Origin: Methylococcales bacterium
Lineage (GTDB): Bacteria > Pseudomonadota > Gammaproteobacteria > Methylococcales > DRLZ01
Direction of reading: 5' to 3'
NCBI GenBank assembly: GCA_965224565.1
Contig: CBDCZN010000002.1
Span: 602,570 to 666,569 of the forward strand
Length of the DNA stretch: 64,000 nt
Made by a program: the position numbers and the translations under genes. Of the stretch, positions 29,654 to 62,058 are shown one piece after another (position 1 is the stretch's first letter; the number at the start of each line of letters is the position of its first letter). The notes under the pieces are model-generated. The model saw only the letters and a program-made list of their open reading frames with translations, ran no database searches and was not told the origin of the DNA.

Positions 29654-29774
29654 ATGAACACCTAAATACAGCAACTAATAAATGGATTGACAGCATAGCA
29701 TAAGAATGAACAACACTAAACGTTAAGCTATCTTCAACATGAAATGAACCTGAGCTCATCTTTTCAGCAAATCC

Positions 29775-31074: not shown

Positions 31075-31735
31075 AAAGAGAATAATCGCTCAAATGTTTA
31101 CATTTAACTCTAGCAATACCATTGCTTTTTTTATTAAATTTAGCCTGATGTAACTCAGACAACTGGTTTTTATCATTTTCATTAACTATATTTTCAGATA
31201 ATCCTAATAAACCCGTTGTATTATCAAGTCTAATAATAATTCCAAGATTTAAACAGTGCATTTTAATCTTGGGCGCGATTGGTTTGGTTAAGAAAAAAGA
31301 GGACGCATATGCAAAATCACCAATTTTTCGAGTAATCCCAGCCTTAATCGGATTACACTCAATATATTTAACCAAGCTAAAGAGGTATGACTCATCATAA
31401 ATATACCAAGATTGAAACCTTCCCTGCCAAAGGTGGCCTACTCGATTATATTTTTTATTAAAATAGATAGCATATTTTGAGTTTATTTGTCTCATTATTA
31501 GAGACAGGTTAGTCTTTGTTATTTCAATAAGCAAATGATAATGATTGTCCATCAGGCAAAATGAATGCATGATGAATTTATAAAGGTCCGCAGTCTCATC
31601 AATAATATCTATGAATTTGTCCCGATCATCATCGCTGAGAAAAACGGTACGGTGCTCAACTCCTCTATTGATGATGTGATAAAACCCTATTTCCTCTATT
31701 CTAACTCGTCTTGCCATATGGATAGTAACAGTCAT
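31052..31735 (-). CDS. IS200-like Y1 (HUH) transposase / REP-associated tyrosine transposase-like protein
   Basis: 227 aa. Motifs: FYHIINRGVEHRTVF, HUH motif MDNHYHLLIE, GHLWQGRFQS and the catalytic-Tyr region VKYIECNPIKAG. No flanking IS ends were identified. Confidence 0.75.
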   Translation of the reverse strand: MTVTIHMARRVRIEEIGFYHIINRGVEHRTVFLSDDDRDKFIDIIDETADLYKFIMHSFCLMDNHYHLLIEITKTNLSLIMRQINSKYAIYFNKKYNRVGHLWQGRFQSWYIYDESYLFSLVKYIECNPIKAGITRKIGDFAYASSFFLTKPIAPKIKMHCLNLGIIIRLDNTTGLLGLSENIVNENDKNQLSELHQAKFNKKSNGIARVKCKHLSDYSLFDCNEKL

Positions 31736-34827: not shown

Positions 34828-36207
34828 TTATTCCTCTTCGCAGGTAAGATTCTTATTCAATATTGCATGATAACCACCTGTTTTGGGTGATCCTCTAAAC
34901 TCGATTTTGTTTTCATCTTTTAATTGTTTCAGCCTGCGCTCCAGAGTTCTCTGGGGTACAGCGAATACCATTTTTAGCTCACTGGTTCTTTTCCCAGGAT
35001 GAGTGCCAATATAAGCCAAGAGGGAATTTACTCCGTCATTTACTCCGTCATTTACTCCGTCATTTACTCCGCCATGCCTCTCTTCATCTTGCTGAAATGT
35101 GACCAATACACCATCGCCCATTTCCTCAATTTTGAAGGTTACGTGTGGATAATCCTGAAGTACTTTGCGAATACGGATGAAGCCACTGCCGTATTTTTCA
35201 ATATTTTTTGTCAGGTAAAATGCTTCTGCAACTAACTTGTTACGCAGGTGTGATTGATAGTGATCCGTTTTGATGTCTTCTATCGTTAAGCCACCATAAA
35301 ATCGACCAGGGCTAAAAATCGTGATGCTGTGATCAAAAATTTTTATTTGAATATCAGATGGGCTAGTGTAATCACGGTGAACCAATGCATTTAAAAGTGC
35401 TTCGCGCAGAGCAGGCAGTGGATAAGCAAAGCGTTCTTGGCGTTGCAATTGTCCAGCGAATTCGAAACTAACACTGATATGCGACAAAATAAATTTCATC
35501 GTTTGTTCAACTGCTTCAAACAGAGTGTCTGTGATTTGACGGTCATCCAGAATCAAGGTGGGTGTTTTGAAACGCCCAATATGGATGTGGTGTCGCAAAG
35601 GTTCTTGTGCGAACAGGAGTAATGCAGCCCAGCTAGGTTGTTGTTCAGTGATATATTTAAGCTTTTCCAGTGCTAATAATGGTGATGGATCGAGGTTAAA
35701 CCGTCCCCCGTCGTTCACCTGCGTGATAAATACTTCTATTTTTGTAACAGACAAATCATCGAGTTTCGCATTAATTGCTGGGTAGGTATCCCACGACAAT
35801 TGCAATGATTGCATGTAAAGATCATTAATCTCACCTAAGCTAAGCTGGTGATTGGAGCTGGCAATGCGTTTGAAATATCGTCCTCGAGTATTGACTGGCT
35901 TAACCGGATATTCACCTATGGAGAATAGTGCTAGAGTTTTTCCATTTATATCAACAGCTGAAATGTCAGGAATGATTGATGGACTGGTAGTGGATTTAAC
36001 TTGACCAAGCCATTCATTCAGTGTCTCTTTCCCTAATGTGATGCCTTGAACAACACCTTTGTCAGTAACGCCAACCAATACGCGACCGCCTTCAGCATTG
36101 GCAAAAGCAACCAAAGTTTCAATCGTGTTGCGATCGAACGAGGTTTTAAACTCAGTACTTTGTGATTCGCCTTGTGTGATTAGTGTCGCAAGGTTTTGTT
36201 CTTTCAT
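34828..36207 (-). CDS. AlbA_2 (Schlafen-like) + HATPase_c_4 + wHTH protein (copy 2)
   Basis: Paralog of 27544-28896 with very high amino-acid identity across the whole length. The track ORF extends to 36279; I prefer the Met of MKEQNLATLITQGES by alignment with copy 1. Confidence 0.8.
   Translation of the reverse strand: MKEQNLATLITQGESQSTEFKTSFDRNTIETLVAFANAEGGRVLVGVTDKGVVQGITLGKETLNEWLGQVKSTTSPSIIPDISAVDINGKTLALFSIGEYPVKPVNTRGRYFKRIASSNHQLSLGEINDLYMQSLQLSWDTYPAINAKLDDLSVTKIEVFITQVNDGGRFNLDPSPLLALEKLKYITEQQPSWAALLLFAQEPLRHHIHIGRFKTPTLILDDRQITDTLFEAVEQTMKFILSHISVSFEFAGQLQRQERFAYPLPALREALLNALVHRDYTSPSDIQIKIFDHSITIFSPGRFYGGLTIEDIKTDHYQSHLRNKLVAEAFYLTKNIEKYGSGFIRIRKVLQDYPHVTFKIEEMGDGVLVTFQQDEERHGGVNDGVNDGVNDGVNSLLAYIGTHPGKRTSELKMVFAVPQRTLERRLKQLKDENKIEFRGSPKTGGYHAILNKNLTCEEE
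35025..35072. repeat. In-frame 12-bp tandem repeat, 4 copies (a/catttactccgt/c), encoding GGVN(DGVN)3
   Basis: Read directly from the sequence. It sits at the same position as the 3-copy array in copy 1. Confidence 0.9.
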
Positions 36208-36428
36208 CCCACCTTGCTCAACTTTGTTATATGCAGCAACTTGACCATTATTAATGGAATGGGGATAGCTGTTTGTCATGATTGCGCAGAACTATTGTTT
36301 ATCTTTAAGGCGCTAAAACAGGCGCATAGCTATCTACGTGACTGTTTTAGTGTATTGCTCTCGGCAAAAAATCAACACGCTATCAATTCCGCAGCCGCGC
36401 GAAGTATAAGCCTGCCTCAAAATAATCA

Positions 36429-36968
36429 TCAGCTACGCCAGATAGCAGAAAAATCAAGGGGAATGGTCCATCCTGATAATTCAAACTCAAGCTTACCCTT
36501 AGAAAAATCCCCTTTTTTTTGGTAGGATCCATTGACCCATATGTAAACTTTAGCAACATTTGTTTCTGGATAAACAAGGATATAATAGGCAACACTTTCT
36601 TTTTCGTATAACTGGAATTTTAATAACTCATCTCGTTTTGCAGTTGATGGAGAAGACACCTCAAATATAACACTCGGAACCATTACGACTTTTTCATCAA
36701 CCTCATCACAAAGAATTAAAACATCCGGCTTAACAATGGTATCGTTAGAAACCACCCAATCAATCTCCATCAGCGCATGGCAACCAGCACAATGATCATG
36801 CTTATCTCTAATAATATTATTTAACTGGGTGAGGATATTGCCTGCAACAATTTGATGGGAGACCGATGGAGTTGGAGACATTGCATAAGGCGTACCTGCA
36901 ACCAACTCCCAATCTCCTTCCCAAATCTTGTAGTCTGCAAGAGTGTAATGCTCATGATAAGCTAGCAT
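36429..36968 (-). CDS. Uma2 (DUF820) family putative endonuclease, long type (copy 2)
   Basis: Near-identical paralog of 29114-29653 (MLAYHEHYTLADYKIWEGDWELVAGTPYAMSP...). The track ORF extends to 37034. Confidence 0.8.
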   Translation of the reverse strand: MLAYHEHYTLADYKIWEGDWELVAGTPYAMSPTPSVSHQIVAGNILTQLNNIIRDKHDHCAGCHALMEIDWVVSNDTIVKPDVLILCDEVDEKVVMVPSVIFEVSSPSTAKRDELLKFQLYEKESVAYYILVYPETNVAKVYIWVNGSYQKKGDFSKGKLEFELSGWTIPLDFSAIWRS

Positions 36969-37244
36969 ATGAACACCTAAATATGGCAACAAAGAAATAA
37001 CGGGTTGACAGCATAGCATAAGAATGATCAACACAAAACGTCAGAGACCTAAATCCGCAAATGATTGTGAAATCGGGTGCTGATTCAGCACAATGTCTAT
37101 TATGTGGACCGTTTGTGACCTGATTGATAACCGTGAAGAACATAAAGATAATGAAGGAAAGAGAATTTAGTGATTTGTCGAATAAAGAGTGAGGAATTAA
37201 TAATTAAGTGACTATTTTTGATTAAAACATGTATTCGCTTCTAT

Positions 37245-48714: not shown

Positions 48715-49263
48715 TTAAAATTTTCTAAATCGCTTAAACACATTATCAAAATCTATTTTTGCCTTGCACGTAGTATCTTCGAATTCGTATGTTTCCTTAA
48801 AAAAGTCTCCCTGTTTGGAGTATTTATTGTTTTCTAGTCGATATAGTTTTGCCTTGCAATCATTTGGATACACGATTATGTAGTATGGAACTTTCTCTTT
48901 TTCGTATATTTCAAATTTGAAAATTTCATCTCGCTTGGCTGAAGATTTACTGACAACTTCTACAATAATCTCAGGTGTTTTTGTGATGTATTGATCATTT
49001 GGTTCATCGCATATTAAAACTACGTCAGGTTTCAAAATAGTATCATTTCTTACTTTCCAATCTTCCTCACCTAACACCAAGCATCTTTCACAATCACCTA
49101 TTGAATTCATCAATTAATTTAATATTTTACCTGCTATCGCTTGATGCTTGATCACTGGAGATGGGGTCATTGACACAGGAATTCATCCTATTAATTCCCA
49201 TTTTCCTTCCCAGTGAAGATAATTATCGTAGGTATAATATTCTATTGCTTTTTCAGTTGTCAT
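48715..49263 (-). pseudogene. Uma2 family endonuclease pseudogene (paralog of 54827-55378) with two in-frame stops
   Basis: Translation from the ATG at 49263: MTTEKAIEYYTYDNYLHWEGKWELIG-TGA-IPVSMTPSPVIKHQAIAGKILN-TAA-LMNSIG. The intact paralog has EG and E at those positions. The track ORF covers only the last 132 codons. Confidence 0.8.
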
Positions 49264-49522
49264 TACTTACTTTTCTTCCCTGCCTCCAGCTTGTTAATCT
49301 CGCTGAATAGCCGTTCAGGCTCTTGGTATCGATGAATCACCATCGGTAATACTCTTCCCTGCGACCGATCAATATCGTGAATTCACTAGCTGAGCTCATC
49401 CTGATAATAGTTATTCTCAATAACTTATGCTCGAGAATTAGGGGGCATTTTTTACATTCAATAGAATTTTGATAAAAATTAACGAATCCGACCATTTTAA
49501 AGCAAAGAGTATACAATTGCTA

Positions 49523-50927
49523 GTAACAGTCTTTTCCAATATGAAATGATGCTGAAAGCAAGAAAGGTGATTCCAATATAAAATGAGCCTGAAATAGCGA
49601 TCAATGTCGCTCATGATCACAGGATGAAAACGATCATGAGGCTGGAACAACTGACGAGCATTCAAGCGATCTATCAATTTCTTGATGGAACCCAAGCGGT
49701 TGCCTTCACGATGGCAACGAACAAGCAAGACCGTTATCGCTGGGTGCAGAAAACACTGGTGAAGCACCGCTACATACAACTTGGCAAGGTCGACAAGGGA
49801 ATCGTGATCCGCTACCTGATGAAAGTAACGGGTTATTCTTTGGCTCAGACTAAACGCCTGATACAGCAATACATCAAAACGGGTCGAGTGATCGCTAAGC
49901 CTGCCCGTGGCAACGGTTTCAGACGAACCTATTCAGAGCAGGATATTCGTTTGCTAGCCAGTATGGATGAACGACACGGCCAACCCAGCGGACCAGTCCT
50001 TAAAAAGCTTTGTGAGCGTGCGTACCAGCGTTTTAACCAAACTCAGTATCAACAATTGGCAAGGATTTCGGTCTCACACCTGTATAACTTGCGCGGCTCC
50101 AAAACCTATCAGCGCCAACGTTGCACTCTGACAAAAACACGCCCGAAAGCCGTTTCAATTGGACAACGCCGTAAGCCTTGCCCAAATGACCAACCAGGCT
50201 ATATTCGTATTGATTCTGTCCATCAGGGGGATCAGGATAAGCGCAAAGGGATTTACCACGTCAATGCAGTCGATGAGGTGACGCAATTCCAGATCATTGT
50301 GACACTTGAGCGGATTAGTGAGGACTTTATGCTACCCGCGTTACAACACATACTGGCTGCTTTCCCGTTTAAAATAAAGGGATTTCACACCGATAATGGT
50401 GGTGAATATATCAACTACAGCGTGGCTCAGTTGCTAGAAAAGCTGCGGATTGAATTCACCAAATCACGACCACGACGCAGCAATGATAATGGTCTGGTTG
50501 AAAGTAAAAATGGATCCGTGATTCGTAAACTCTATGGCTATACGCACATCCCTCAGCAGTACGCCACAGACTTCACAGAACTGAATCGGCAGCAAGTCTA
50601 CCGCTACGTCAATTTCCACCGCCCCAGTTTTTTCCCGACCATTGTCACGGATAACAAGGGCAAGCAGCGCAGAATGTATCGTTATAAAGAGATCAGGACA
50701 CCGTATGAAAAGTTCCGATCCTTGCCTCGCCCTAGCCAATACTTAAAGCCAGGGATCACACTTAAAATACTGGATGCATTTGCTGGTGAAATGACAGACA
50801 ATGAGGCAGCTGAACAAATGAATTCAGCACGCGATTATTTATTTAAACAACTCCATGAGCGACTCCAAATAAGGGCTTAAGACTCTCTTACCTTCAGGCT
50901 CATTTCTGGATTGGAAAAGACTGTAAC
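49523..50927 (+). mobile_element. Insertion sequence (~1.4 kb) with an rve-type DDE transposase (ISNCY/IS481-like)
   Basis: Terminal inverted repeats gtaacagtcttttccaat (49523-49540) versus attggaaaagactgtaac (50910-50927), 1 mismatch. Subterminal tccaat..aaatga.cctgaa motifs occur on both ends. No clear target-site duplication was seen. Confidence 0.7.
49624..50880 (+). CDS. DDE transposase with integrase-core (rve) domain
   Basis: 418 aa. N-terminal HTH region, then GYIRIDSVHQGDQD...YHVNAVDEVTQF...HTDNGGEYIN...ESKNGSVIRK (DDE triad context). Confidence 0.8.
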   Translation: MKTIMRLEQLTSIQAIYQFLDGTQAVAFTMATNKQDRYRWVQKTLVKHRYIQLGKVDKGIVIRYLMKVTGYSLAQTKRLIQQYIKTGRVIAKPARGNGFRRTYSEQDIRLLASMDERHGQPSGPVLKKLCERAYQRFNQTQYQQLARISVSHLYNLRGSKTYQRQRCTLTKTRPKAVSIGQRRKPCPNDQPGYIRIDSVHQGDQDKRKGIYHVNAVDEVTQFQIIVTLERISEDFMLPALQHILAAFPFKIKGFHTDNGGEYINYSVAQLLEKLRIEFTKSRPRRSNDNGLVESKNGSVIRKLYGYTHIPQQYATDFTELNRQQVYRYVNFHRPSFFPTIVTDNKGKQRRMYRYKEIRTPYEKFRSLPRPSQYLKPGITLKILDAFAGEMTDNEAAEQMNSARDYLFKQLHERLQIRA

Positions 50928-50985
50928 ACCAAGATATAGATTGACAGTAATATGCTGATTTTGCTCTTGGTTCTGGTTTACTGGT

Positions 50986-51113
50986 ATTATTTGATTTTCT
51001 TTTTTGCCATATATTTTGATTTTGGATTGACTTCTATAGTTTGTAGCTTTGGTACTAACACGACATCCATATCTTCCATAGGGATTGCTCCCAATAATAC
51101 TTCAGACTCACCA
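50986..51113 (-). pseudogene. 3' fragment (~40 codons) of a retropepsin-like protease gene
   Basis: Aligns by eye almost base for base with 56429-56566 (the 3' end of the intact gene 56428-56850). It abuts the IS right end. Confidence 0.75.
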
Positions 51114-51215: not shown

Positions 51216-51479
51216 ATGAAACAGTTAACCATTCGCGGGTTTGATGAAGAACTGGAGAAATATTTATGTCAACTGGCAAAAGACGAAAATATTTCCCTGA
51301 ATAAGGCAACAGTTAAACTTCTACGCCAAGCAGCCGGTCTTGACAGAAAAAAGCGAGCACCCGACGTCATTGGTAATGCGCTGGATGAGTTTATTGGCGT
51401 ATGGTCGAGCCAGGAAGAGCGTCAATTTAACGATGCCATTCAGGTGTTTGAGGTTGTTGACGATACTTTATGGCAATGA
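51216..51479 (+). CDS. vapB: Ribbon-helix-helix antitoxin (VapB/FitA-like)
   Basis: 87 aa. MKQLTIRGFDEELEKYLCQLAKDENISLNKATVKLLRQA is an RHH pattern. It overlaps the downstream PIN gene by 10 nt. Confidence 0.75.
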   Translation: MKQLTIRGFDEELEKYLCQLAKDENISLNKATVKLLRQAAGLDRKKRAPDVIGNALDEFIGVWSSQEERQFNDAIQVFEVVDDTLWQ

Positions 51480-51871
51480 AACTTTTATTGGACACCAACG
51501 CCTATTCAGTCTTCATGTCGGGGCGCGACGAAGTGGTCGATCGTATCCGCCGCGCGGAGCGGGTTTTCCTTTCCACTATCGTGATCGGCGAGTTGCTATT
51601 CGGCTTTCGCAATGGCAATCAGTTTGATAAGAATTATCGAATACTGGAAGCCTTTCTCGACAATCACTTTGTGGAGCTAGTGCCGGCTACACTCACGACG
51701 GCGGATCGTTTTGGCCGAATTGCTGCCGCATTACGCGCGAAGGGACGACCATTGTCTTCTAACGATATATGGATTGCCGCTCATACTCTGGAAACGGGCG
51801 CGGATTTGCTCTCATACGATAACCACTTTCGGGAGATTGATGGCTTGCCCTGGATCCACTTAACGATTTAA
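51470..51871 (+). CDS. vapC: PIN-domain toxin VapC
   Basis: 133 aa. LLLDTNAYS (first acidic residue), GELLFG and SSNDIWIAAH are typical PIN/VapC motifs. Confidence 0.85.
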   Translation: MAMKLLLDTNAYSVFMSGRDEVVDRIRRAERVFLSTIVIGELLFGFRNGNQFDKNYRILEAFLDNHFVELVPATLTTADRFGRIAAALRAKGRPLSSNDIWIAAHTLETGADLLSYDNHFREIDGLPWIHLTI

Positions 51872-51976: not shown

Positions 51977-52528
51977 TCATTTTCTAAAACGTTTAAAAAT
52001 GGTTGAGAAGTCAAAACTGAGCGGACAACTTAGTTTGGTGAAATCAAAGGCTTCAGTATCGCATTCGGCGACTTTTAATAGTTTTTTGCCATTATGCTGA
52101 TAGATTCTGGCAACAAGATCATCTGGATAAACCTGGCAGTAATATTTAACCCCTTGATTCTGGTAGATCTCAAATTTCAGACCTTCATCCCGTTTGGCTG
52201 TCGATGGGCTTAGTACCTCAAAAATAATTTCGGGTGTTTTGGCGATGTAATTGGGGTTTTCATCATTGCAAACGACTGCAACATCAGGTTTGAGGATAGT
52301 GGAGGTATCCAGCTTCCAGTCTTCATCAATCAGAATTTCACAGTTTGGACAATTATTTGTTTTGTTGTTTATCTCACTAAAAATATAGCCTACAAGCATC
52401 TGATGTGTTTTGACTGGCGCAGGCGACATCGCATAGGGAATACCTTCAATAAGTTCCCAGTCGCCTTGCCAGTGTTGGTAATCTTCATAAGTATAGGCTG
52501 GCAGGTCTTCTGTTTTTAGTATTCCCAT
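51977..52528 (-). CDS. Uma2 (DUF820) family putative endonuclease, long type
   Basis: 183 aa. YTYEDYQHWQGDWELIEGIPYAMSP...KPDVAVVC...IIFEVLSPSTAKRDEGLKFEIYQNQGVKYY. Confidence 0.8.
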   Translation of the reverse strand: MGILKTEDLPAYTYEDYQHWQGDWELIEGIPYAMSPAPVKTHQMLVGYIFSEINNKTNNCPNCEILIDEDWKLDTSTILKPDVAVVCNDENPNYIAKTPEIIFEVLSPSTAKRDEGLKFEIYQNQGVKYYCQVYPDDLVARIYQHNGKKLLKVAECDTEAFDFTKLSCPLSFDFSTIFKRFRK

Positions 52529-52866: not shown

Positions 52867-54525
52867 GGATTAATCGTAACTTCTCATTATCCACAGGCAG
52901 CAGCTTGAAGAATATCCGCCATTGGAGGAATCTGTTTCGCATTCGACGTACGATCAAGCAGGTAGCTCCAGAACGAAATCCCATGCTTGCGACAGGTTTT
53001 CTTTAAACTGGCAAAGGTGTCCCTGCATTGCCGACCCGCTTCACTGCGGGTGCTCCCACTGATCTTGCGTTTCTTGACGTAATCCCGAATATCCCGTTCA
53101 CTCAGGTTATTGTGCAAGGGAATCTCCGGTCTTTCCAATACACGGAATAATTCATGCTGATTGTTGCCCATGCGTTTCAGGATCTGATTCAGCGTTTCAT
53201 AATCGGTGCGCGTCGATACCAGTTGATGGAACTGCGCTTTCAAGCGCGTTGCGTGCGCTGGGTCAGGCGCTGTTTTATAGATTTTCAAACCCGCATAAAT
53301 CGACCAAACTTCATCCCGCGCCCAGCTGACTGCTTGCTTTTGCAGATCATTCACAGGAATGAGCCGCGTCATCAGTCGCTCTGTATGAATCCAGCACAGG
53401 ACATGATCAAAGACATTGAATTGCCCCGCATCGTCACTCACAATGCCAAGATTGATTGGAATGCCTTGATCGAGCAAGCGCCCAACCAGCATCCCTTCGG
53501 TGAGAATCCGCTGATGACGTTGATTGGTGATCCCTTGCTCTTCCAGCCAGTGCTCTAAAGCAGCGGGTGTCTCAAATTTAATTGGTTGGGTTTCAAGCGA
53601 TTCCAATAGAAATTTCGGAAGCTTTTGGCGTTGCATGTATTCCAGAGCACCCGCATTGATGACGTAGGCCTGGCAACCACTTCTGCTCAGCAGCTCAAGA
53701 AAGTTAACACGACTTTTAGACTCAGTACTTTCAAACCAGGCAAACAGCTCATTGCCAATATGAGTACAGTAACCGGTCTTGCCCTGATGGCGAGCCCCGG
53801 TGTCATCTGCGTGAATATAGCTGGACAGCGGCAGTCCATAACGCAGCAGATCGCTTTTTTCCTGGTGAAACACGTCAAGGTCTTTGGTCAGCATTTGACT
53901 TAATTGACCGCTGGAGATATCAATACCAAGATCATGCAGTTGTTCCAGCAACAGGGGCTGAGTGACGTGCTGATGATGATATTGATACAAGATAAAACTG
54001 TGTAAGTTTGATCCCCAATGGCCACTACGAACCGATTCAGGTAACTGGGCAATGACATAACCCTCACTGGTTTCATATTCGGCCAGACGATAACGAATGG
54101 TGTGAGGACAAATGATCAGATCTTGAACAATAATGTCTCGATAGCCTTTAAAGCGTGCGTCCTCCGAAAGATTGGCGGGCTGTATGATGCGCTCTTCATG
54201 AATCGTCAAATGCTGGGTTTTACTGCGTTTGGGGCCTTTCTTTTTTCCGGTACGAGCACTATCGTCTTCTGGTTCTGTCTGTTGATCCATCCCGCTGGAC
54301 TTGAATTTAGGTTTTCGAGTCTGTTTGTTCAACCTGTGAATGTCATCTTCTAATTGCTCAATGCGATCTGATTGCCATTGGAGAAGTTCAAGCAACGCAT
54401 CGACTAGTGGCGTGCGATCAGCATCTGAAATGGGTGGCAATAGCGGCTTTACAGAATTCATTGAATGTAGTTTATTACATTTAATTCGTAATTGCCTGTA
54501 AATAATGAGAAGTTACGATTAATCC
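52867..54525 (-). mobile_element. Insertion sequence (1659 bp), IS66-family-like
   Basis: Perfect 24-bp terminal inverted repeats ggattaatcgtaacttctcattat (52867-52890) versus ataatgagaagttacgattaatcc (54502-54525). A single transposase ORF lies inside. No obvious target duplication. Confidence 0.8.
52887..54461 (-). CDS. IS66-like DDE transposase
   Basis: 524 aa. N-terminal coiled coil, IHADDTGARHQG, and a C-terminal HNNLSERDIRDYVKKRKISGSTRSEAGRQCRDTFASLKKTCRKHGISFWSYLLDR that resembles the IS66 TnpC C-terminus. The family assignment is by resemblance only. Confidence 0.65.
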   Translation of the reverse strand: MNSVKPLLPPISDADRTPLVDALLELLQWQSDRIEQLEDDIHRLNKQTRKPKFKSSGMDQQTEPEDDSARTGKKKGPKRSKTQHLTIHEERIIQPANLSEDARFKGYRDIIVQDLIICPHTIRYRLAEYETSEGYVIAQLPESVRSGHWGSNLHSFILYQYHHQHVTQPLLLEQLHDLGIDISSGQLSQMLTKDLDVFHQEKSDLLRYGLPLSSYIHADDTGARHQGKTGYCTHIGNELFAWFESTESKSRVNFLELLSRSGCQAYVINAGALEYMQRQKLPKFLLESLETQPIKFETPAALEHWLEEQGITNQRHQRILTEGMLVGRLLDQGIPINLGIVSDDAGQFNVFDHVLCWIHTERLMTRLIPVNDLQKQAVSWARDEVWSIYAGLKIYKTAPDPAHATRLKAQFHQLVSTRTDYETLNQILKRMGNNQHELFRVLERPEIPLHNNLSERDIRDYVKKRKISGSTRSEAGRQCRDTFASLKKTCRKHGISFWSYLLDRTSNAKQIPPMADILQAAACG

Positions 54526-54826
54526 TCATAACATATTGTTTAATAACGAATACATAATTTAAGACTTAACTGAGTTTCATAGGTAATCAGGATTTTTTAA
54601 CTGTCGGACATCACTAGCTCCGATATTTTAATGTTTCGGAAAAACAAAGTTGTTGAAGAAAATTACATTAATTATCAATTGTTTGCCAAGAGGGTATCAT
54701 GTTCTCTGATTTGATGCCTGCTGTCGATCAATACCGCAAATTCGATGGCTCATTGTTAAGTGGTTTTATCAGTACCTGTATGTATATCCATAATTTCTTA
54801 TAATCCACCTAAGGTCTGAAGCGACT

Positions 54827-55378
54827 TCATGCCTGTTTTCTAAATTGCTTAAACACATTATCAAAATCTATTTTTGCCTTGCACGTAGTATCTTCGAATT
54901 CATAAATTTCCTTAAAAAAGTCGCCCTGTTTGGAGTATTTACTATTTTCTAGTCGATACAGTTTTGCCTTGCAGTCATCTGGATACACGATTATGTAGTA
55001 TGCAACTTTCTCTCTTTCGTATATTTCAAATTTGAAAACTTCATCTCGCTTGGCTGAAGATTGACTTACAACTTCTACTATAATTTCCGGGGTTTTTGTG
55101 ATGTATTGATCATTTGGTTCATCACATATCAAAACCACATCAGGTTTCAAAATAGTATCATTTCTTACCTTCCAATCTTCCTCACCTAACACCAAGCATC
55201 TTTCACAATTTCCTATTGAATTCATCAATTCATTTAATATTTTACCTGCTATCGCTTGATGATTGATCACTGGAGATGGGGTCTTTGACATAGGGATACC
55301 CTCTAGCAATTCCCATTTTCCTTCCCAGAGAAGATAATCATCGTAGGTGTAATACTCTATTGCTTTTTCAGTTGTCAT
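54827..55378 (-). CDS. Uma2 (DUF820) family putative endonuclease, long type
   Basis: 183 aa. YTYDDYLLWEGKWELLEGIP...KPDVVLIC...IIVEVVSQSSAKRDEVFKFEIYEREKVAYY. Confidence 0.8.
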   Translation of the reverse strand: MTTEKAIEYYTYDDYLLWEGKWELLEGIPMSKTPSPVINHQAIAGKILNELMNSIGNCERCLVLGEEDWKVRNDTILKPDVVLICDEPNDQYITKTPEIIVEVVSQSSAKRDEVFKFEIYEREKVAYYIIVYPDDCKAKLYRLENSKYSKQGDFFKEIYEFEDTTCKAKIDFDNVFKQFRKQA

Positions 55379-55551: not shown

Positions 55552-56022
55552 TTACTCATTCTCGGCAGCCAATTTCAACACCGCCTCAATCAACGACTGA
55601 GATAGATATATCCTGCTTGCAGCGATATCTTCAACTTGGGTTTTTATTTTTGATACAAGCCCTGCTTGTTTTGCACTGAATAAAATACCAAGAGAGCCAA
55701 TTGTATTAATCCCATTAATTTTGGCAGTTCTTCTGCCTCTTCTGTCATCAATTAAAAGCATGTCTGCTGATTTTTGTTTGTATAGCAACATGGCTTCAGT
55801 TTCTCCTGCATCAGTATTTCCATCCAGGTAGATAAAATCATGCATATTTACTTCGCGTACTTTTTCTTGTAGATAGTTCTCAAGTATTTTTGCTTCTGGC
55901 TTATCACTTTTTACTACTTCCAGAAAGACAGCTTCCGGCACAAACACTTCTTTAAAAAGTTGATCTTATAGTATAAGACCATCGCATACTGAAAGTGCTG
56001 AACTATCAGCAACTAAAATCAT
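55552..56022 (-). pseudogene. DUF3368 (PIN-like) toxin gene with an in-frame TAA at codon 19
   Basis: The ATG at 56022 overlaps the upstream stop (ATGA). Translation: MILVADSSALSVCDGLIL-TAA-DQLFKEVFVPEAVF... in the same frame as the track ORF 55552-55947. The C-terminus GETEAMLLY...LLIDDRRGRRTAKINGINTIGSLGIL is DUF3368-like. Confidence 0.7.
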
Positions 56023-56270
56023 TGATTGACCATACTTTCAAGTTCTTTCTGTAACTCCTCTTTTGTAACATTGATTACTGGTATTTGTTCTTCTTTACAG
56101 CATCTCATAAATTCATAGATATCCAAATTAGCTAGCTCTGCTGCTTTTGAGAGGGTAAGGTTGGCTGTTTTGTATAATCTTAGTGCATACGATAAACGCG
56201 TTTCTTGTTTGACTTTTTGCTCAGACTGCATTGTCATAAAGTCATTGGGTAATTCTATCGCTATTTGCAT
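56019..56270 (-). CDS. UPF0175 family antitoxin
   Basis: 83 aa. ALRLYKTANLTLSKAAELANLDIYEFMRCCKEEQIPV matches the UPF0175 pattern. It sits upstream of, and overlaps, the DUF3368 gene. Confidence 0.7.
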   Translation of the reverse strand: MQIAIELPNDFMTMQSEQKVKQETRLSYALRLYKTANLTLSKAAELANLDIYEFMRCCKEEQIPVINVTKEELQKELESMVNQ

Positions 56271-56285: not shown

Positions 56286-56427
56286 TGAACCAAAGCCAAT
56301 CTGGTCGGATTTGATTGATTTTCCATAAGTGGAACGCCGTTTTCGGCAACACAGACATGCATCGCCAGATTAGAACGACACAGTTCAATCAAGTCAGTTT
56401 TATCTAATTCAATGCCCTTTACTTTAG
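56286..56427 (-). pseudogene. C-terminal remnant of an MNT-type nucleotidyltransferase antitoxin gene
   Basis: Encodes KVKGIELDKTDLIELCRSNLAMHVCVAENGVPL, alignable with MGIESNKIDLIELRRSNLAMRASVAENGISL of the intact gene 57340-57723. It starts directly after the stop codon of the protease gene. Confidence 0.65.
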
Positions 56428-56850
56428 CTATTTTTTGATTTTCTTTTTTGCCATATATTTTGATTTTGGATTGACATCTATAGTTTGTAGCTTTGGTACT
56501 AATACGACATCCATATCTTCCATAGGGATTGCCCCCAATAAAACTTCAGACTCACCAGGAAGTACAGCAGCATTACAGCTAGTCGTTCTGTTTTTAAAAT
56601 TAATTATTAAAGGCCCAACAACTTTCATAGGTTGCAATGAACCATCAGCAAGTTCTGCTTCCATCGTATCCATAACAGGCAAATCTAGTTGAGCTTTTAT
56701 GTGTTCATTGATACACATCATATATGCACCACTATCAACTAATGCTGTTACATTTTCTTTTTTAATGTCTTCCTTGTCGATGTAACCTTTCCTCGCTAAT
56801 TCAAAATCCCCAGCACTTACTAGTTCTAAATCCGCATAAATTAATTCCAT
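56428..56850 (-). CDS. Retropepsin-like (clan AA) aspartic protease, small stand-alone form
   Basis: 140 aa with the catalytic motif in TALVDSGAYMMCI and a second-half GAIPMEDMDVVL typical of small bacterial/archaeal retropepsin-like proteins. Confidence 0.7.
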   Translation of the reverse strand: MELIYADLELVSAGDFELARKGYIDKEDIKKENVTALVDSGAYMMCINEHIKAQLDLPVMDTMEAELADGSLQPMKVVGPLIINFKNRTTSCNAAVLPGESEVLLGAIPMEDMDVVLVPKLQTIDVNPKSKYMAKKKIKK

Positions 56851-56915: not shown

Positions 56916-57350
56916 TCATTCATGCTTAGCTTTTCCATTCTCTTCAATTGTCTTAAGTAAAAAGTTCATGACAAATTGTTCGCTATCAGACATCACCCAT
57001 TCTATTACTTTATTCATGTCAATATTCATATAATCGTGAACGATACGATTACGAAACCCGATGACTTCATTCCATGCTGGAAGAGTGGTTGCTTCTATTT
57101 CACCACAACGTGCTAACGCAGAAAATGCGTCATAAGCCGAAATTGGTACAGCTTCGTTATGTGCTTTAAGGAGTTGTTTTGCTTTTCCTATTGCATTTTC
57201 GATTAGTACCTGCAAAGCATGCAGCACACCACTTTGTTCTAACAAGCTCAAGGTGCCACGCTGAGCCATAATTTCTCTTGCCTGTATTAATAATGCTGCT
57301 TGCTCTGTGGCAATGCGCGCAGTTTCTGCTTGATATAAATCAAGCCGCAT
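56916..57350 (-). CDS. hepT: HepT (DUF86) toxin of a HepT/MNT type VII toxin-antitoxin pair
   Basis: 144 aa with the Rx4HxY motif in FRNRIVHDYMNID. It overlaps the upstream MNT gene by 11 nt. Confidence 0.8.
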   Translation of the reverse strand: MRLDLYQAETARIATEQAALLIQAREIMAQRGTLSLLEQSGVLHALQVLIENAIGKAKQLLKAHNEAVPISAYDAFSALARCGEIEATTLPAWNEVIGFRNRIVHDYMNIDMNKVIEWVMSDSEQFVMNFLLKTIEENGKAKHE

Positions 57351-57723
57351 GACTTTGATCCCAGTAGAAATCTTCCAGTTCGCGCCAGGTGCGGGTTAAA
57401 AAATATGCCCAGGCCAAGGTCTCTTCACCTGTAAGTGAAATACCATTTTCGGCAACAGATGCACGCATTGCGAGATTAGAGCGACGTAGTTCAATCAGGT
57501 CAATTTTATTTGATTCGATGCCCATTGCTTCCGCTATATTTCTACGCAATGTCTCGGTTTTGCCAAGTAGCTCTAGCCAGTCTAACTGCATATTCCATTG
57601 CAAGGCGATATCCCAATCGCTGTCGGGTTGGGCTGTACCATTTGCTCTGCTGCCGATCAATACTGCGAATTCTATAGCCGACTCATCGTGTAGTTGTTTC
57701 CTCAGTAGCTTATGTATATCCAT
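57340..57723 (-). CDS. mntA: MNT minimal nucleotidyltransferase antitoxin
   Basis: 127 aa with the NTase motif VLIGSRANGTAQPDSDWDIAL (GSx...DxD). Confidence 0.8.
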   Translation of the reverse strand: MDIHKLLRKQLHDESAIEFAVLIGSRANGTAQPDSDWDIALQWNMQLDWLELLGKTETLRRNIAEAMGIESNKIDLIELRRSNLAMRASVAENGISLTGEETLAWAYFLTRTWRELEDFYWDQSHAA

Positions 57724-57763: not shown

Positions 57764-58231
57764 TTAGACCAAGCCTTTTAAATCTATATTGAAAATTGAT
57801 TGAGTTTGTTGACCCTGGTGATTATGATATGTTACCTGACCATCCTCCGTTACTAGCCAAACTTCTTTTGCGCCCGCTTCTAAAAACAATACAACCTTGT
57901 CGATCATTTCTTCTCGCGTATTTGAGGGAGAAATAATTTCCACACATAATTCTGGTGCTGATAATGCATAGACATCTTTTATATGCTTTTGCACATATTC
58001 TTTGGAGCCCCACGCCACATCAGGCACACGAATTCCTTGCGTTGTTTGCACTGCAAGCTCGGTAAATACTTCGCCATCTAATTGATTACCCAATAATTTA
58101 GTTAATCTTCCTTGCAACAAACTATGAATAAATGATGCCGGGGACATTTCTATTATACCTTTTTCATTCAGTTCTATTTTATAAGGTAGATCATGTAATG
58201 ATTTGTCTGCTAAAACATCTTGCCATTGCAT
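57764..58231 (-). CDS. Uma2 (DUF820) family putative endonuclease, short type (1 of a tandem triplet)
   Basis: MQWQDVLADKSLHDLPYKIELNEKGIIEMSP...VPDVAWGS...ELCVEIISPSNTREEMIDKVVLFLEAGAKEVW. The start is at the ATG at 58231, preceded by ggag (Shine-Dalgarno sequence); the track ORF extends to 58270. Confidence 0.75.
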   Translation of the reverse strand: MQWQDVLADKSLHDLPYKIELNEKGIIEMSPASFIHSLLQGRLTKLLGNQLDGEVFTELAVQTTQGIRVPDVAWGSKEYVQKHIKDVYALSAPELCVEIISPSNTREEMIDKVVLFLEAGAKEVWLVTEDGQVTYHNHQGQQTQSIFNIDLKGLV

Positions 58232-58351
58232 GTTTTCTCCTATTTTGTTGCTAATGCTAAAGATACTCATAATAAACGGAGTTGTGTCTCAGGCGGGGTC
58301 AGGATTTAAGGACTTTACCTCTATAGCTCCATTATATGATAGGGCTAAATA

Positions 58352-58828
58352 CTATTGTTTTTTTATTGTCTGCGCAGTCGGTGCAATGCTACTTTCTTTA
58401 ATTTCGCCCGTATGTGTATAGGTGTTTATTCTTCCATTCTCATAGACTATCCATACTTCATTTGCACCTTTTGCAAGATAGAGATTAACTTTAGTAGCTA
58501 TTTCTTCCTTTGAATTGGATGGAGAAACAATTTCAACACAAATCTCTGGTGCTTTTGGGTAAGGTGTTTTGTAGGAAAATTTGTTTATAAAATCATTTGA
58601 AGCCCAGGCTACGTCCGCTACTTTTACGCCGTCAGCTGTTTGGATAGAACATTCTGCTATGACTTCTCCTTTTGGTAGCTTACTATTTAAATTAATGCTA
58701 ATTTGTACTTGTATGCGACCATGTTGATTAGAAGCTGGACTCATTAGAATGTTGCCGAATTTGTTCAGCTCAATTTTAAAAGGAAGGTCTTGTAGTAAAG
58801 GGTTGTTGATGACTTCAGACCATTGCAT
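58352..58828 (-). CDS. Uma2 (DUF820) family putative endonuclease, short type (2 of 3)
   Basis: 158 aa. MQWSEVINNPLLQDLPFKIELNKFGNILMSP...VADVAWAS...EICVEIVSPSNSKEEIATKVNLYLAKGANEVW. Confidence 0.75.
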   Translation of the reverse strand: MQWSEVINNPLLQDLPFKIELNKFGNILMSPASNQHGRIQVQISINLNSKLPKGEVIAECSIQTADGVKVADVAWASNDFINKFSYKTPYPKAPEICVEIVSPSNSKEEIATKVNLYLAKGANEVWIVYENGRINTYTHTGEIKESSIAPTAQTIKKQ

Positions 58829-59071
58829 TTTACACCTCTACAATCATAATATTTTCTTAAGAAAATAAGCGTTAAGTAATTACCGGGATTGGATCAAACC
58901 TGTGGATTTAATAATTTTCTATAACTTCTAACTATATAATAAGCTGAAATATATTTTATTTTTGCATTGGTGAAATATCATTAGCCTCAAACTTGCCCCG
59001 TTACCTTTTCTCTACCTTTTGTGTTAATTGCACGAAAAAATCACTGTAATGCAAAAAAAAAAAACAGAAAA

Positions 59072-59542
59072 TTAAATACTTGATGGAAAACTAACAGCCA
59101 CATTTGAGCTTTCCAGCTCACCTTCTTTTACAAAAAAACTCATATTACCAAGACTGTCACATACCCAAAACTCTAAAGCCCCTTGCAGAAAATATAATTC
59201 TTTTTTCTCATTTAGTTCACCTTTTGTGTTGGAAAAAGAAATTACTTCAATACAAATCTCGGGGGCTATTGAGCATTCAACCTCATTTTTTATTTTTTCC
59301 AATAAGTCATTTGATGCCCAGGCAACATCGGCTACTTTTGTTCCCTGTTGTGTGCTGATGGCGCATTCAGCTAAAGCCTCGCCTCCCGTCAAGCATTGAT
59401 ACAAGTTGCCGATGATTTTTCCTTGAAGAATAGAATGATTAACTTTGACCGGAGTCATCAATACTTTCCCTTGGTTATCGAGTTCTATCTTGAACGGAAT
59501 ATTTTTAAGGTATTGATTTTCACATGCTTCTTGCCACTGCAT
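59072..59542 (-). CDS. Uma2 (DUF820) family putative endonuclease, short type (3 of 3)
   Basis: 156 aa. MQWQEACENQYLKNIPFKIELDNQGKVLMTP...VADVAWAS...EICIEVISFSNTKGELNEKKELYFLQGALEFW. Confidence 0.75.
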   Translation of the reverse strand: MQWQEACENQYLKNIPFKIELDNQGKVLMTPVKVNHSILQGKIIGNLYQCLTGGEALAECAISTQQGTKVADVAWASNDLLEKIKNEVECSIAPEICIEVISFSNTKGELNEKKELYFLQGALEFWVCDSLGNMSFFVKEGELESSNVAVSFPSSI

Positions 59543-59808: not shown

Positions 59809-62058
59809 TTAGTTTTTCTGGTAATTATATTGATAAACATATTTACCATATCCATATCGTGATGAACTTAGTGGCAACTGATTGAAAACAATGCCTTTTA
59901 TATCAACATCGTTTTGCTTTAATCGTTTTACGCATTGTTGAAGCTCTCTTAATGGGTGTTCACCTGCTTTAACAACCATTAGCGTTGCACTGACCATACG
60001 ACCAATTATACAAGCATCGGTTACTGCCAATACTGGTGGGGAATCAATAATAATATGATCATAATGTCGATCTAAGACTTCAAGCAATTTTCCAAAACGC
60101 TCGTGTAATAATAATTCTGATGGGTTTGGGGGTATAGCTCCGGTAGGAATAAAATCGATATCGCCTGCCTCAATAGTCTGTATCCCTTCAGCCGGTATTG
60201 TGATTTCTTCCGAAATCAGATCCGATAATCCATTTTCTCGGGTTACGCCAAGTGATTTGTTCAATACACCTTTACGCAAATCAGCGTCAATTAATAATAC
60301 TTTCTTTCCTGAATTAGCCAATACAATGGCCAGATTGATTGAAATAAAAGTCTTTCCTACATTTGGGCTGGGGCCAGTAATCATAATAATGTTGTTTTTT
60401 GCTTCCAGGAATGCAAAATGCAATGTTGTACGCAGACTACGCAAACTTTCTATCGCCATATCTTCAATATCCTCTAATGCCAGAATGACAGGAGAATTAG
60501 CAGTCGATTTGTTTTTTTTCTGTTGATTGTTTAACTTTTGTTGAAAATCGCTATGGGGAACAGTTGCATAAACGGGTATGTTGAGATGTTTTTCTATAAT
60601 GTCTGGATCTTCTATACCATGGCTCATCATCTTACGTATAAAGACCAAAGCCGTACCTAGCATTACACCTAAAACAGATGCCAGCGCAATTATTAGTGCT
60701 TTTTGGGGTTTAACTGGCTTGGTTGGCAATACTGCATAATCAATTATCCTTACATTTCCAACGGTTCCAGCTTTGGCGACTTTGAGTGTTTGTAAATTGT
60801 TCAGCAGCGTCGTATATAACTCTGTATTAACCTTGACATCTCTGGATAGCCTGAGAATGACTTGCTGAGTTTCAGGTAATTCAGCAATTTTTTTGTTTTG
60901 AGCATTTAACTGGGTACGAAGTCTGTTAATTTGTTTATCAATTGTTACAACGGATGGATGTGAAGGTGTAAAGCTGCGGCGTAATTCTTCGCGGTTTTGT
61001 TGTAATAGTGTTATTTGGGTTCTATTTTCAACAACACCGCCTAAAATGCTCTGTGTTTCTAGATTTAAATCTATGGAGCCTTTGTTTAGTCTGTATTCGT
61101 TTAATGCGGCGGTTGCGGCTTCTAGTTGATCTTTGATTAGTGGTAGTTGTTTATCCAGAAACTCTAGTTTATTTTGTGCTTCTGCCGATTTTTGTTCTAC
61201 ATTTAATTGAACATAAATATTAGCGATTTTATTCAGTACTTCCATGGCCATAACAGGTGATGCTGATTCCATGGTAAAACTAAGAATACCTGTTCCCTTG
61301 CCTTTTTCTGAAACGGATAATTTCTTTTGTAATGAGCTAATTGTTTCTATATGTGATTGCCTGCTGATTTTAAAATGTGTGCCAGGTCTGGCTTTAAGCA
61401 AGGATACAAAGAGACGAAAGGAGACATCTTCGCCTGCAATCGGTCTGTTGATGAATTTTCCAACTTCGCCTTCGGCTAGAAATTGGTTGTTATTATCGAC
61501 TATTTTAAATAACTTATTTCTACCTGTGATTAGAGTTAATTCTTCCCCGATCCAACTTGTAGGCAGTACTAAAGTATCGACTTTAATTAACTCGCCTCCC
61601 CAGGCGTAATCAGAATAACCGAACAAGGGGGCGGCAACTTTATCTTTGTTGCCTAATTGAAAGTATCTGGCAATCGCTTTACCAATCAGTGGAAAAAATT
61701 TAGGTTGAGCGGTGATTTCCATATTTAGAGCTTTAACCGCCGCGCCCAATACCATTCTGGATTTAATGATTTCTATTTCCGCGTCTACCGGTACTTTGCT
61801 TTCTATTAATTCAGCCAGAGGATCCAGAGTTCCTAAAGGTTGCGATGATTCTTCAACCTGAAGCATGGCATTTGCTTGATAGATAGGGGTATCCAATATT
61901 GCCTTTGCTGTTCCTACGAGTAATGCGATTGTTGTTATTGCAATAATCAGCCATTTATTATCAAACAAAGTGACAATTATCTCTCCTAAATCTATTTCGT
62001 CATCATCTTGAGTTTGGTAACTATTTAAAGTCTGATTAATACTTGAATTGTCTGACAT
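59809..62058 (-). CDS. wzc: Polysaccharide co-polymerase / tyrosine autokinase (PCP-2a, Wzc)
   Basis: 749 aa. Wzz-like N-terminus with 2 TM helices and a periplasmic coiled coil, Walker A ITGPSPNVGKTFISINLA, and the C-terminal Tyr cluster RYGYGKYVYQYNYQ. Confidence 0.9.
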   Translation of the reverse strand: MSDNSSINQTLNSYQTQDDDEIDLGEIIVTLFDNKWLIIAITTIALLVGTAKAILDTPIYQANAMLQVEESSQPLGTLDPLAELIESKVPVDAEIEIIKSRMVLGAAVKALNMEITAQPKFFPLIGKAIARYFQLGNKDKVAAPLFGYSDYAWGGELIKVDTLVLPTSWIGEELTLITGRNKLFKIVDNNNQFLAEGEVGKFINRPIAGEDVSFRLFVSLLKARPGTHFKISRQSHIETISSLQKKLSVSEKGKGTGILSFTMESASPVMAMEVLNKIANIYVQLNVEQKSAEAQNKLEFLDKQLPLIKDQLEAATAALNEYRLNKGSIDLNLETQSILGGVVENRTQITLLQQNREELRRSFTPSHPSVVTIDKQINRLRTQLNAQNKKIAELPETQQVILRLSRDVKVNTELYTTLLNNLQTLKVAKAGTVGNVRIIDYAVLPTKPVKPQKALIIALASVLGVMLGTALVFIRKMMSHGIEDPDIIEKHLNIPVYATVPHSDFQQKLNNQQKKNKSTANSPVILALEDIEDMAIESLRSLRTTLHFAFLEAKNNIIMITGPSPNVGKTFISINLAIVLANSGKKVLLIDADLRKGVLNKSLGVTRENGLSDLISEEITIPAEGIQTIEAGDIDFIPTGAIPPNPSELLLHERFGKLLEVLDRHYDHIIIDSPPVLAVTDACIIGRMVSATLMVVKAGEHPLRELQQCVKRLKQNDVDIKGIVFNQLPLSSSRYGYGKYVYQYNYQKN

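Follow-up and report, generated by a model that had tools for sequence, protein, structure and literature searches.

Three diverged short Uma2 genes downstream of wzc in a Methylococcales bacterium, probably independent genes gathered in a recombination hotspot

The window analysed here, a 64-kb stretch of DNA from a Methylococcales bacterium, carries on its minus strand three consecutive genes for short-type Uma2 family PD-(D/E)XK nucleases, hereafter U1, U2 and U3. U1 (59072-59542) encodes 156 aa, U2 (58352-58828) 158 aa and U3 (57764-58231) 155 aa from its MQW ATG. The U1-U2 spacer (58829-59071) is A/T-rich and measures 243 bp, the U2-U3 spacer (58232-58351) 120 bp. The upstream neighbour is wzc (59809-62058, minus strand), encoding a tyrosine autokinase and co-polymerase (Pfam Wzz, WZC_N, GNVR and AAA_31), whose stop lies 266 bp from U1. 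Downstream, 40 bp separate U3 from an MNT gene (57340-57723; Pfam Polbeta/NTP_transf_2), which forms a toxin-antitoxin pair with a HepT gene (56916-57350; Pfam HepT-like); both lie on the minus strand and overlap by 11 bp according to their ORF coordinates. The ORF coordinates and Pfam matches confirmed the first-pass annotation of this DNA, which had described three co-oriented genes of 155-158 aa between wzc and a HepT/MNT pair, as well as their common MQW(Q/S)(E/D) start (MQWQE in U1, MQWSE in U2 and MQWQD in U3). A Shine-Dalgarno-like sequence (AAGGA, GAGGTG or AGGAG) was present 5' of each ATG. A longer U3 ORF, extending up to 58270, is possible in the window; since in-frame stops interrupt this extension in L010 and L017, two related loci, and its upstream ATG is not conserved as an ORF, the MQW start is, judging from these relatives, the true start of U3.

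An island of about 11 kb, lodged in a polysaccharide locus, contains the triplet along with toxin-antitoxin modules, insertion sequences and further Uma2 genes. Based on Pfam matches, the minus strand of the island also carries an Asp-protease-like gene (56428-56850), a UPF0175/DUF3368 pair (55552-56270), two long Uma2 genes (54827-55378 and 51977-52528), an IS66-family element (52867-54525) and an rve-type insertion sequence (49523-50927), together with a long-Uma2 pseudogene interrupted by two in-frame stops (48715-49263); a PIN gene (51470-51871) lies on the plus strand. With two further long-type copies at 29114-29674 and 36429-37034, the window contains eight Uma2 loci, one of them a pseudogene. 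The first-pass annotation had opposed the diverged triplet to near-identical long-type duplicates. This description fits a single pair, 54827-55378 and the pseudogene at 48715-49263 (about 90% protein identity, and 93% identity over 300 nt of repeat D1), whereas the copies at 51977-52528, 29114-29674 and 36429-37034 are only 42-49% identical to this pair and to each other. The only repeats of the island are the ends of insertion sequences (terminal inverted repeats I1 and I5) and duplicated gene fragments (D1-D4), including pieces of the MNT and Asp-protease genes. No repeat family, inverted repeat, attC-like site, MITE or terminal repeat borders U1-U3, as would be expected of integron-type or otherwise repeat-bounded cassettes.

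All three proteins scored above the gathering cut-off of the Pfam Uma2 profile (PF05685; bit scores of 70.6, 59.8 and 47.2 within the triplet, for a cut-off of 27), with E-values of 2.3e-12 for U1, 3.1e-16 for U2 and 1.5e-19 for U3, and, also by sequence, a profile of the short type retrieved the structures 9y1l, 6okh and 3ot2. The AlphaFold2 model of U2, the one protein that we folded, was of high confidence (pLDDT 90.5, pTM 0.84), and its top Foldseek matches in the PDB were the Uma2/DUF820 structures 1wdj, 6okh, 3ot2 and 9y1l (E=1e-9 to 1e-8, probability 1.0, TM about 0.6). The Uma2 family has a rearranged active site, H...(P)D...EXX...K (Feder and Bujnicki, 2005; PMC551604), and residues H43, D83, E111 and K127 of all3650 in that study correspond to H36, D72, E99 and K113 in U1-U3, with "AD" in place of "PD" in U1 and U2. 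These four residues are invariant in the triplet and its orthologues, at least 85% conserved in each subfamily (351 homologues), and included in the 37 positions conserved across these homologues. The subfamilies differ from one another mainly in helix 34-50, segment 78-92 and the C-terminal hairpins, the catalytic core being invariant. Each of U1-U3 is predicted to be a small Mg2+-dependent PD-(D/E)XK nuclease.

No NCBIfam model matched the triplet proteins. They were matched by the HMM PDLC04832 of the PADLOC defence candidate PDC-S03 (E=5e-12, 1.5e-12 and 2.8e-8), for which no paper was found in the literature searched. The same literature contained no experimental function, activity or phenotype for Uma2, DUF820 or COG4636, so that the biological role has to be inferred; it is most likely that of a single-gene defence or "solo toxin"-type nuclease, as proposed for the Uma2 family. 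The triplet does not look like a type II toxin-antitoxin system, in which a small antitoxin gene is adjacent: the homologues are solitary, their neighbours are unrelated, the spacers contain no conserved small ORF that could encode an antitoxin, and the adjoining MNT-HepT pair is a complete module by itself. Nor does it look like a restriction-modification system, no methyltransferase being found at 48.7-59.8 kb.

The pairwise amino-acid identity between U1, U2 and U3 is 35-43%, in line with their earlier description as clearly diverged. All 360 best database matches were closest to their own query paralogue, with 55-100% identity versus 35-51% to the other two. The 120 best homologues of U1 are 55-92% identical to U1 and 35-49% to U2 or U3; homologues of U2 at 70-92% identity occur in Electrothrix, Thiothrix, Leucothrix and others, the cable-bacteria proteins being 70-75% identical to U2; and the best homologues of U3, among them those of Methyloprofundus, are 60-94% identical. 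From these identities, U1-U3 fall into three anciently separated subfamilies, each of them widespread, and this separation, together with the saturation of synonymous sites between the paralogues (pS 0.71-0.79), agrees with the great age that had been attributed to them. Because of this saturation, dN/dS could not be estimated between paralogues, and we used orthologue pairs from related contigs instead. The ratio was 0.14 for U1 and its L007 orthologue, 0.08-0.11 for U2 and 0.06-0.11 for U3, hence 0.06-0.14 over six pairs (Fisher p<1e-12), compared with 0.11 for wzc and 0.09 for wza. The pairs differ by 28-57 substitutions each, at about 0.5 synonymous substitutions per site. Each gene of the triplet is under strong purifying selection. 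The earlier view that the genes are not decaying neutrally was thus borne out by ratios equal to those of wzc and wza and by intact catalytic residues.

The order and number of Uma2 genes vary among close relatives, and clusters of two to five such genes occur in relatives. Besides wzc-U1-U2-U3, we observed the arrangements wzc-epimerases-pseudoU3-U2, wzc-U3-...-Long-U1 and Long-U2-U3-Long-U1; order or copy number differed in L007, L009, L010/L100, L017, L098, L099 and L102, and only L097 and L105 matched the window. The difference between U2-U3-Long-U1 in relatives and U1-U2-U3-...-Long in the window might be explained by a block duplication followed by deletion. Among the relatives, wzc has Uma2 genes next to it only in the nearest ones, L009, L097 and L102. 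In L009, the MNT/HepT pair is kept beside the Uma2 genes and two epimerase genes stand between these and wzc; U1 is absent, U2 is intact and the U3 orthologue has an in-frame TAG at codon 18. Other broken copies are an extra, frameshifted U3 in L007, a truncated U2 in L017 and a U3 fragment in L098. The relatives are metagenomic, and misassembly could account for some of these disruptions, for instance the frameshift in L017; L010 and L017 are labelled as Bacteroidota MAGs, probably through mis-binning, and how closely the hosts are related is judged from wzc/wza only (83-84% nucleotide identity). Broken frames in close relatives, proposed earlier as a sign of neutral decay, are seen for single copies (in L009, L007, L017 and L098), but the intact copies stay constrained.

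The same three subfamilies and one long type co-occur in at least five related contigs. In more distant relatives, DNA homology does not reach beyond the genes themselves, breaking off 13-49 bp before the ATG. Outside the close relatives, U1-, U2- and U3-like genes are almost always solitary and found in varied contexts: 73 of the 80 loci with a U2-like gene in species genomes lack a second Uma2 gene within about 8 kb. A Wzc or Wza homologue was near none of these 80 loci, which rules out a general link between U2-like genes and wzc/wza. Short-type Uma2 genes were found in one of 2.9 million viral contigs and in no phage record, with six weak matches in plasmids; phages or plasmids do not account for Uma2 mobility.

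Only in the nearest relatives, L097 and L105, is the U1-U2 spacer found joined to the genes on either side (about 87-88% nucleotide identity); it is missing from more distant loci. The U2-U3 spacer can be aligned, if indels are allowed, with its counterparts in L010, L100 and L017, the whole U2-spacer-U3 block being about 85% identical over 1.1 kb. The presence of this block in three arrangements could be due to a functional link and not simply to physical linkage. No structured RNA was detected in the triplet spacers by Rfam, whose sole line was a chance match to MALAT1 (E=0.47) outside them, and promoter-like and terminator-like sites around the triplet were not more numerous than in shuffled sequence.

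We consider it probable that the triplet consists of independent, stand-alone short Uma2/COG4636 genes gathered in a recombination hotspot, and not of a co-evolved operon. In this Methylococcales lineage, the hotspot would lie directly downstream of wza-wzc, where Uma2 genes, toxin-antitoxin modules and insertion sequences accumulate, about 11 kb of which part wzc from the remainder of the polysaccharide operon. In the hotspot, Uma2 cassettes would be duplicated, reordered and lost, probably via unequal or illegitimate recombination and the activity of insertion sequences, and U1-U3 would be neighbours because the hotspot accumulates such genes. Since each intact copy is under strong purifying selection, each may be useful or addictive on its own, while being individually dispensable. 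The first-pass annotation had instead seen in the triplet an old tandem array maintained by selection for multiple specificities or hetero-oligomers. The genes are old, but a maintained array is not supported, given the variable order and content in close relatives and the nearly always solitary occurrence of the subfamilies elsewhere. Solitary homologues and shifting gene order also argue against obligate hetero-oligomers, and nothing supports an obligate complex. A co-selected unit, whether of hetero-oligomers or of nucleases with complementary target specificities, therefore seems to us quite unlikely, even though the three subfamilies recur together in L007, L010/L100, L098 and L102, the U2-spacer-U3 block is shared by the window, L010/L100 and L017, U1 and U2 adjoin each other in L097 and L105, purifying selection acts on all copies, and the subfamilies vary outside the invariant catalytic core. 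L009, with its intact U2 beside a stop-bearing U3 and no U1, speaks against it, and since all three active sites are complete, none of the proteins resembles a regulatory or antitoxin-like partner. A looser variant, in which U1-U3 and the co-travelling long type would form a linked repertoire of nucleases with differing target specificities, a reshuffled battery of innate immunity in which U2-spacer-U3 may be a two-gene unit, strikes us as a long shot.

The gathering of independent genes in a hotspot overlaps with the hypothesis of Feder and Bujnicki (PMC551604) that Uma2 genes are purely selfish nuclease genes, which by cutting or nicking the genome would stimulate recombination and thereby their own duplication and spread, the array being a by-product without benefit to the host; the two explanations differ only in who benefits. 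Eight Uma2 copies in 64 kb, the frequency of tandem and shuffled cassettes, the restriction of homology to gene bodies in distant relatives and the cross-phylum identities of about 70-75% would all be expected of selfish genes, but the cassettes lack flanking target-site duplications, terminal repeats and att-like sites, hardly any copies occur in phages or plasmids, and strong purifying selection, acting on chromosomal copies that are about 0.5 synonymous substitutions per site apart, implies that these have long been inherited vertically. We regard a purely selfish origin as unlikely. A role of the triplet in capsule or EPS production, as accessory genes co-transcribed with wza-wzc, is very improbable: U1 follows wzc on the same strand at 266 bp with no terminator-like site predicted between them, and Uma2 genes lie after wzc or within polysaccharide loci in L009, L097, L102 and L090, but none of the 80 U2-like loci in species genomes has a Wzc or Wza homologue nearby, epimerase genes intervene in L009, the nuclease fold of the U2 model has no link to sugar chemistry, and the neighbours are toxin-antitoxin modules and insertion sequences. 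Finally, broken copies (the U3 stop in L009, the pseudo-U3 of L007, the truncated U2 of L017 and the long-type pseudogene at 48715-49263) could suggest decaying, functionless remnants of duplication; this is effectively refuted by the dN/dS of 0.06-0.14 (p<1e-12), obtained on orthologue pairs with 28-57 substitutions each that are not recent transfers with too few changes, by the intact frames, by the 37 positions conserved in 351 homologues and by the confident model of U2.

The triplet shares with the Uma2/DUF820/COG4636 family and its structures (1WDJ, which is TT1808; 3OT2, which is Ava_3926; 6OKH; 9Y1L) the profile, the fold (as modelled for U2), the H-(P)D-EXX-K residues and the multi-copy habit. 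Its proteins are shorter than the usual form (about 155 versus about 185 aa), covering profile positions of about 5-150 out of 172 without the usual N-terminal lead and C-terminal tail, and are further set apart by an M-x-W N-terminus that is invariant and by the conserved residues Cys97, Trp75 and Trp126. The hosts also differ: methanotrophs, sulfur oxidisers and cable bacteria for the short form, cyanobacteria or Thermus for the usual one. The alpha/beta core and the carboxylate-carboxylate-lysine chemistry of Uma2 are common to the archaeal Holliday-junction resolvases Hjc/Hje and to type II restriction endonucleases, but the Uma2 lysine is shifted to the following helix and, unlike restriction systems, the triplet has no adjacent methyltransferase; the likeness is one of fold and predicted chemistry.

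Clusters of this kind have been described before. Makarova, Wolf and Koonin (2009; PMC2701414) called Uma2 a "likely solo toxin" found mostly as cassettes of paralogues, Feder and Bujnicki (2005; PMC551604) reported its proliferation, tandem duplicates and a run of four genes in Crocosphaera, and the context of gammaproteobacterial Uma2 genes is variable and rich in mobile elements (PMC3424549). As in the cassettes of the first two studies, co-oriented Uma2 paralogues stand here side by side without a dedicated antitoxin and close to toxin-antitoxin modules. In Crocosphaera, the genes of the run are closely related and arose by recent duplication, whereas the triplet unites members of different old subfamilies that are 35-43% identical; because its neighbours belong to such different subfamilies, the cluster looks as if cassettes that diverged long ago had been brought together or reshuffled, and not like the product of fresh duplication. 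In Synechocystis, the DUF820 gene sll1222 and a toxin-antitoxin pair lie within the hox hydrogenase operon (Kopfmann et al., 2016; PMC4963859). In both cases, a large operon of other function has taken up co-oriented Uma2 and toxin-antitoxin genes; here the host operon is another one, the insertion falls between wzc and glycosyltransferase/flippase genes, and it includes several Uma2 copies and IS elements. That such insertions stabilise the operons that harbour them, as has been proposed, is speculative for sll1222 and for the island described here alike.

The triplet is an ordinary example of a pattern described in 2005-2009, and taken alone it is of minor importance. It provides another well-documented instance of clustered Uma2 paralogues, from a lineage of methanotrophs, and shows that clustered copies can be, beyond fresh duplicates, long-diverged subfamilies under strong purifying selection. 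Uma2 is among the largest predicted nuclease families without known function. Being compact (about 155 aa), confidently modelled in the case of U2, present across phyla at 70-75% identity and located amid toxin-antitoxin genes, the short form would lend itself well to a first test of the Uma2 family, be it in biochemical assays or in phage defence.

The three short-type Uma2 genes downstream of wzc (U1, U2 and U3; the short type has about 155 aa) are open reading frames on the minus strand at 59072-59542 (156 aa), 58352-58828 (158 aa) and 57764-58231 (155 aa), respectively. U1 is separated by 266 bp from wzc (59809-62058, minus strand) and by 243 bp from U2, which lies 120 bp from U3; 40 bp further downstream follows the MNT gene (57340-57723, minus strand), paired with HepT (56916-57350, minus strand). 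A Shine-Dalgarno-like sequence is located 5-10 nt 5' of the ATG in each gene. U3 could be read in a longer frame from 58270, but stop codons interrupt this frame in the corresponding spacers of two related loci from other genomes (L010 and L017), so the MQW start proposed in the first-pass annotation is right. All three proteins scored above the Pfam Uma2 threshold and share 35-43% pairwise identity, confirming the initial observation of three diverged paralogues.

U1-U3 represent a short form of the family, spanning approximately positions 5-150 of the 172-position Pfam profile; none of them matched a model in an NCBIfam search. The short-type profile retrieved by sequence the Uma2 structures 9y1l, 6okh and 3ot2, and the confident AlphaFold2 model of U2 (103 homologues, pLDDT 90.5) had TT1808 (1wdj), 6okh, 3ot2 and 9y1l as top PDB matches, with a probability of 1.0. 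The COG4636 active site was described as 'PD-EXX-K', with H43, D83, E111 and K127 of all3650 (Feder and Bujnicki, PMC551604). At the corresponding positions, H36, D72, E99 and K113 do not vary among U1-U3 and their orthologues and, like 33 further positions, are conserved to 85% or more in every subfamily (351 homologues). In PADLOC, Uma2 is listed as PDC-S03, a putative defence candidate.

The best 120 database matches of each paralogue were all nearest to their own query (55-100% identity), sharing only 35-51% with the other two. U1, U2 and U3 belong to three separate large subfamilies, and their divergence is therefore older than, or unrelated to, the wzc locus. Synonymous sites are saturated between the paralogues (pS 0.71-0.79; pN 0.40-0.43). 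U2-like proteins of about 59-75% identity occur in Methylococcales, cable bacteria (Electrothrix, with the closest matches at 70-75%, and Electronema), Thiothrix and Leucothrix (loci L003, L014, L016, L018-L025, L043, L066 and L073), with relatives of about 61-67% identity in Crenothrix and in Blastocatellia of the Acidobacteriota (L027, L031). This distribution implies that the genes have been transferred across phyla. The hosts include many filamentous bacteria.

Most U2-like genes (73 of the 80 species-representative genomes) have no second Uma2 gene within about 8 kb, and genes resembling each of U1, U2 and U3 occur singly, in unrelated surroundings, in Electrothrix YB6, Methyloprofundus and other contigs. 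U1-like genes of up to 79% identity are likewise solitary. The link with wzc is local: across the 80 species genomes, no Wzc or Wza homologue was found near a U2-like gene. Short-type Uma2 was almost absent from the viral contigs, phages and plasmids searched. Tandem pairs of U2 type, 61-74% identical to U2, were observed in other Methylococcales (L013, 7328-8468; L050, 8001-8938); these are local duplications within one subfamily, whereas the triplet of the window mixes subfamilies.

Orthologues of U1-U3 in related contigs are 85-94% identical. Their dN/dS ratios (NG86, orthologue pairs) were 0.14 for U1, 0.08-0.11 for U2 and 0.06-0.11 for U3, with a highly significant synonymous excess (p<1e-12), bearing out the view that the array is not a decaying duplication; between the window and L009, the ratios were 0.11 for wzc and 0.09 for wza. 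In the same comparison, dS was lower in the island genes (HepT and MNT, 0.17-0.38; Uma2, 0.36-0.47) than in wzc and wza (0.75-0.86), possibly because lineages exchanged the island more recently, although these are noisy estimates from small genes.

The arrangement of the genes varies among close relatives. The order wzc-U1-U2(-U3) is contiguous in the window, L097 and L105 (87-88% nucleotide identity). Other loci exhibited wzb-wza-wzc-two epimerases-pseudoU3-U2-MNT-HepT-Long (L009, Long being the longer Uma2 form), wzc-U3-...-Long-U1 (L102), Long-U2-U3-Long-U1 (L010/L100), U3-Long-fragments-U1 (L098) and U2-pseudoU3-MazE-PIN-U3-IS-pseudoLong-U1 (L007). With the more distant of these loci, DNA homology stops 13-49 bp before each start codon and does not extend past the stop codon; the U2-spacer-U3 block is the one part with a wider occurrence, in L010, L100 and L017. 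Disrupted frames in close relatives, which the first-pass annotation would have taken as a sign of neutral decay, do occur in single copies: U3 carries a TAG at codon 18 in L009, the second U3 of L007 is frameshifted and U2 is truncated in L017. Its reading of a maintained old tandem array did not hold, given the separate subfamilies, the solitary homologues, the changed orders and the lost copies.

An island of about 11 kb (48.7-59.8 kb), with U1-U3 at its upstream end, splits wza-wzc from the other polysaccharide genes of the same strand (flippase, GT4 glycosyltransferases, aminotransferase). It also contains MNT-HepT, an Asp-protease-like gene, a UPF0175/DUF3368 pair, a PIN gene, two long Uma2 genes and one long pseudogene. 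The latter (48715-49263, minus strand) has two in-frame stop codons; its protein is about 90% identical to the copy at 54827-55378, and it is the near-identical duplicate noted at first. An IS66-family element (52867-54525) has 33-bp terminal inverted repeats, and the same end, 98% identical over 60 bp, adjoins the Uma2 array in L010 (4141-4200). A second, rve-type IS (49523-50927; transposase 49624-50880, plus strand) has 18-bp inverted repeats on either side. Short fragments of MNT and Asp-protease-like genes, dispersed over the island (D2-D4; 49359-49393, 54718-54752, 56326-56435 and 50985-51113), indicate repeated segmental duplication and deletion, and appear to be what is left of duplicated MNT-HepT...Long-Uma2 units.

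The window contains eight Uma2 loci in total, counting two long-type copies further along the operon. These lie directly upstream of genes encoding Schlafen AlbA_2 plus HATPase_c_4 proteins of 450 or 483 aa (29114-29674 with 27544-28896, and 36429-37034 with 34828-36279, all minus strand), in what looks like a duplicated two-gene module within the polysaccharide operon. An IS200-like Y1 transposase gene (31052-31735, minus strand) is also present in this gene cluster.

The idea first proposed, that U1-U3 form hetero-oligomers or a set of joint specificities, is less likely: the three types do travel together within the clade, and U2 and U3 make up a conserved block, but outside it each type stands alone, and related loci have lost members. 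U1-U3 are most likely three independent small predicted PD-(D/E)XK nucleases, each selected on its own. Each gene would act as a single-gene defence, toxin-like or selfish module, and the three would have been gathered and reshuffled in a recombination hotspot after wzc.

We found no experimental function in the literature for any Uma2 family member. COG4636 was described as a group of putative nucleases that proliferate and spread by horizontal transfer, sometimes forming tandem duplicates (four genes in a row in one case), and was proposed to consist of selfish, recombinogenic elements (Feder and Bujnicki, 2005, PMC551604). [quoted passage not shown] The wzc locus fits all these descriptions and agrees with that of Steczkiewicz et al., except that the neighbours are long-diverged subfamilies instead of recent duplicates. 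It is a further instance of the already described clustering of Uma2 paralogues.
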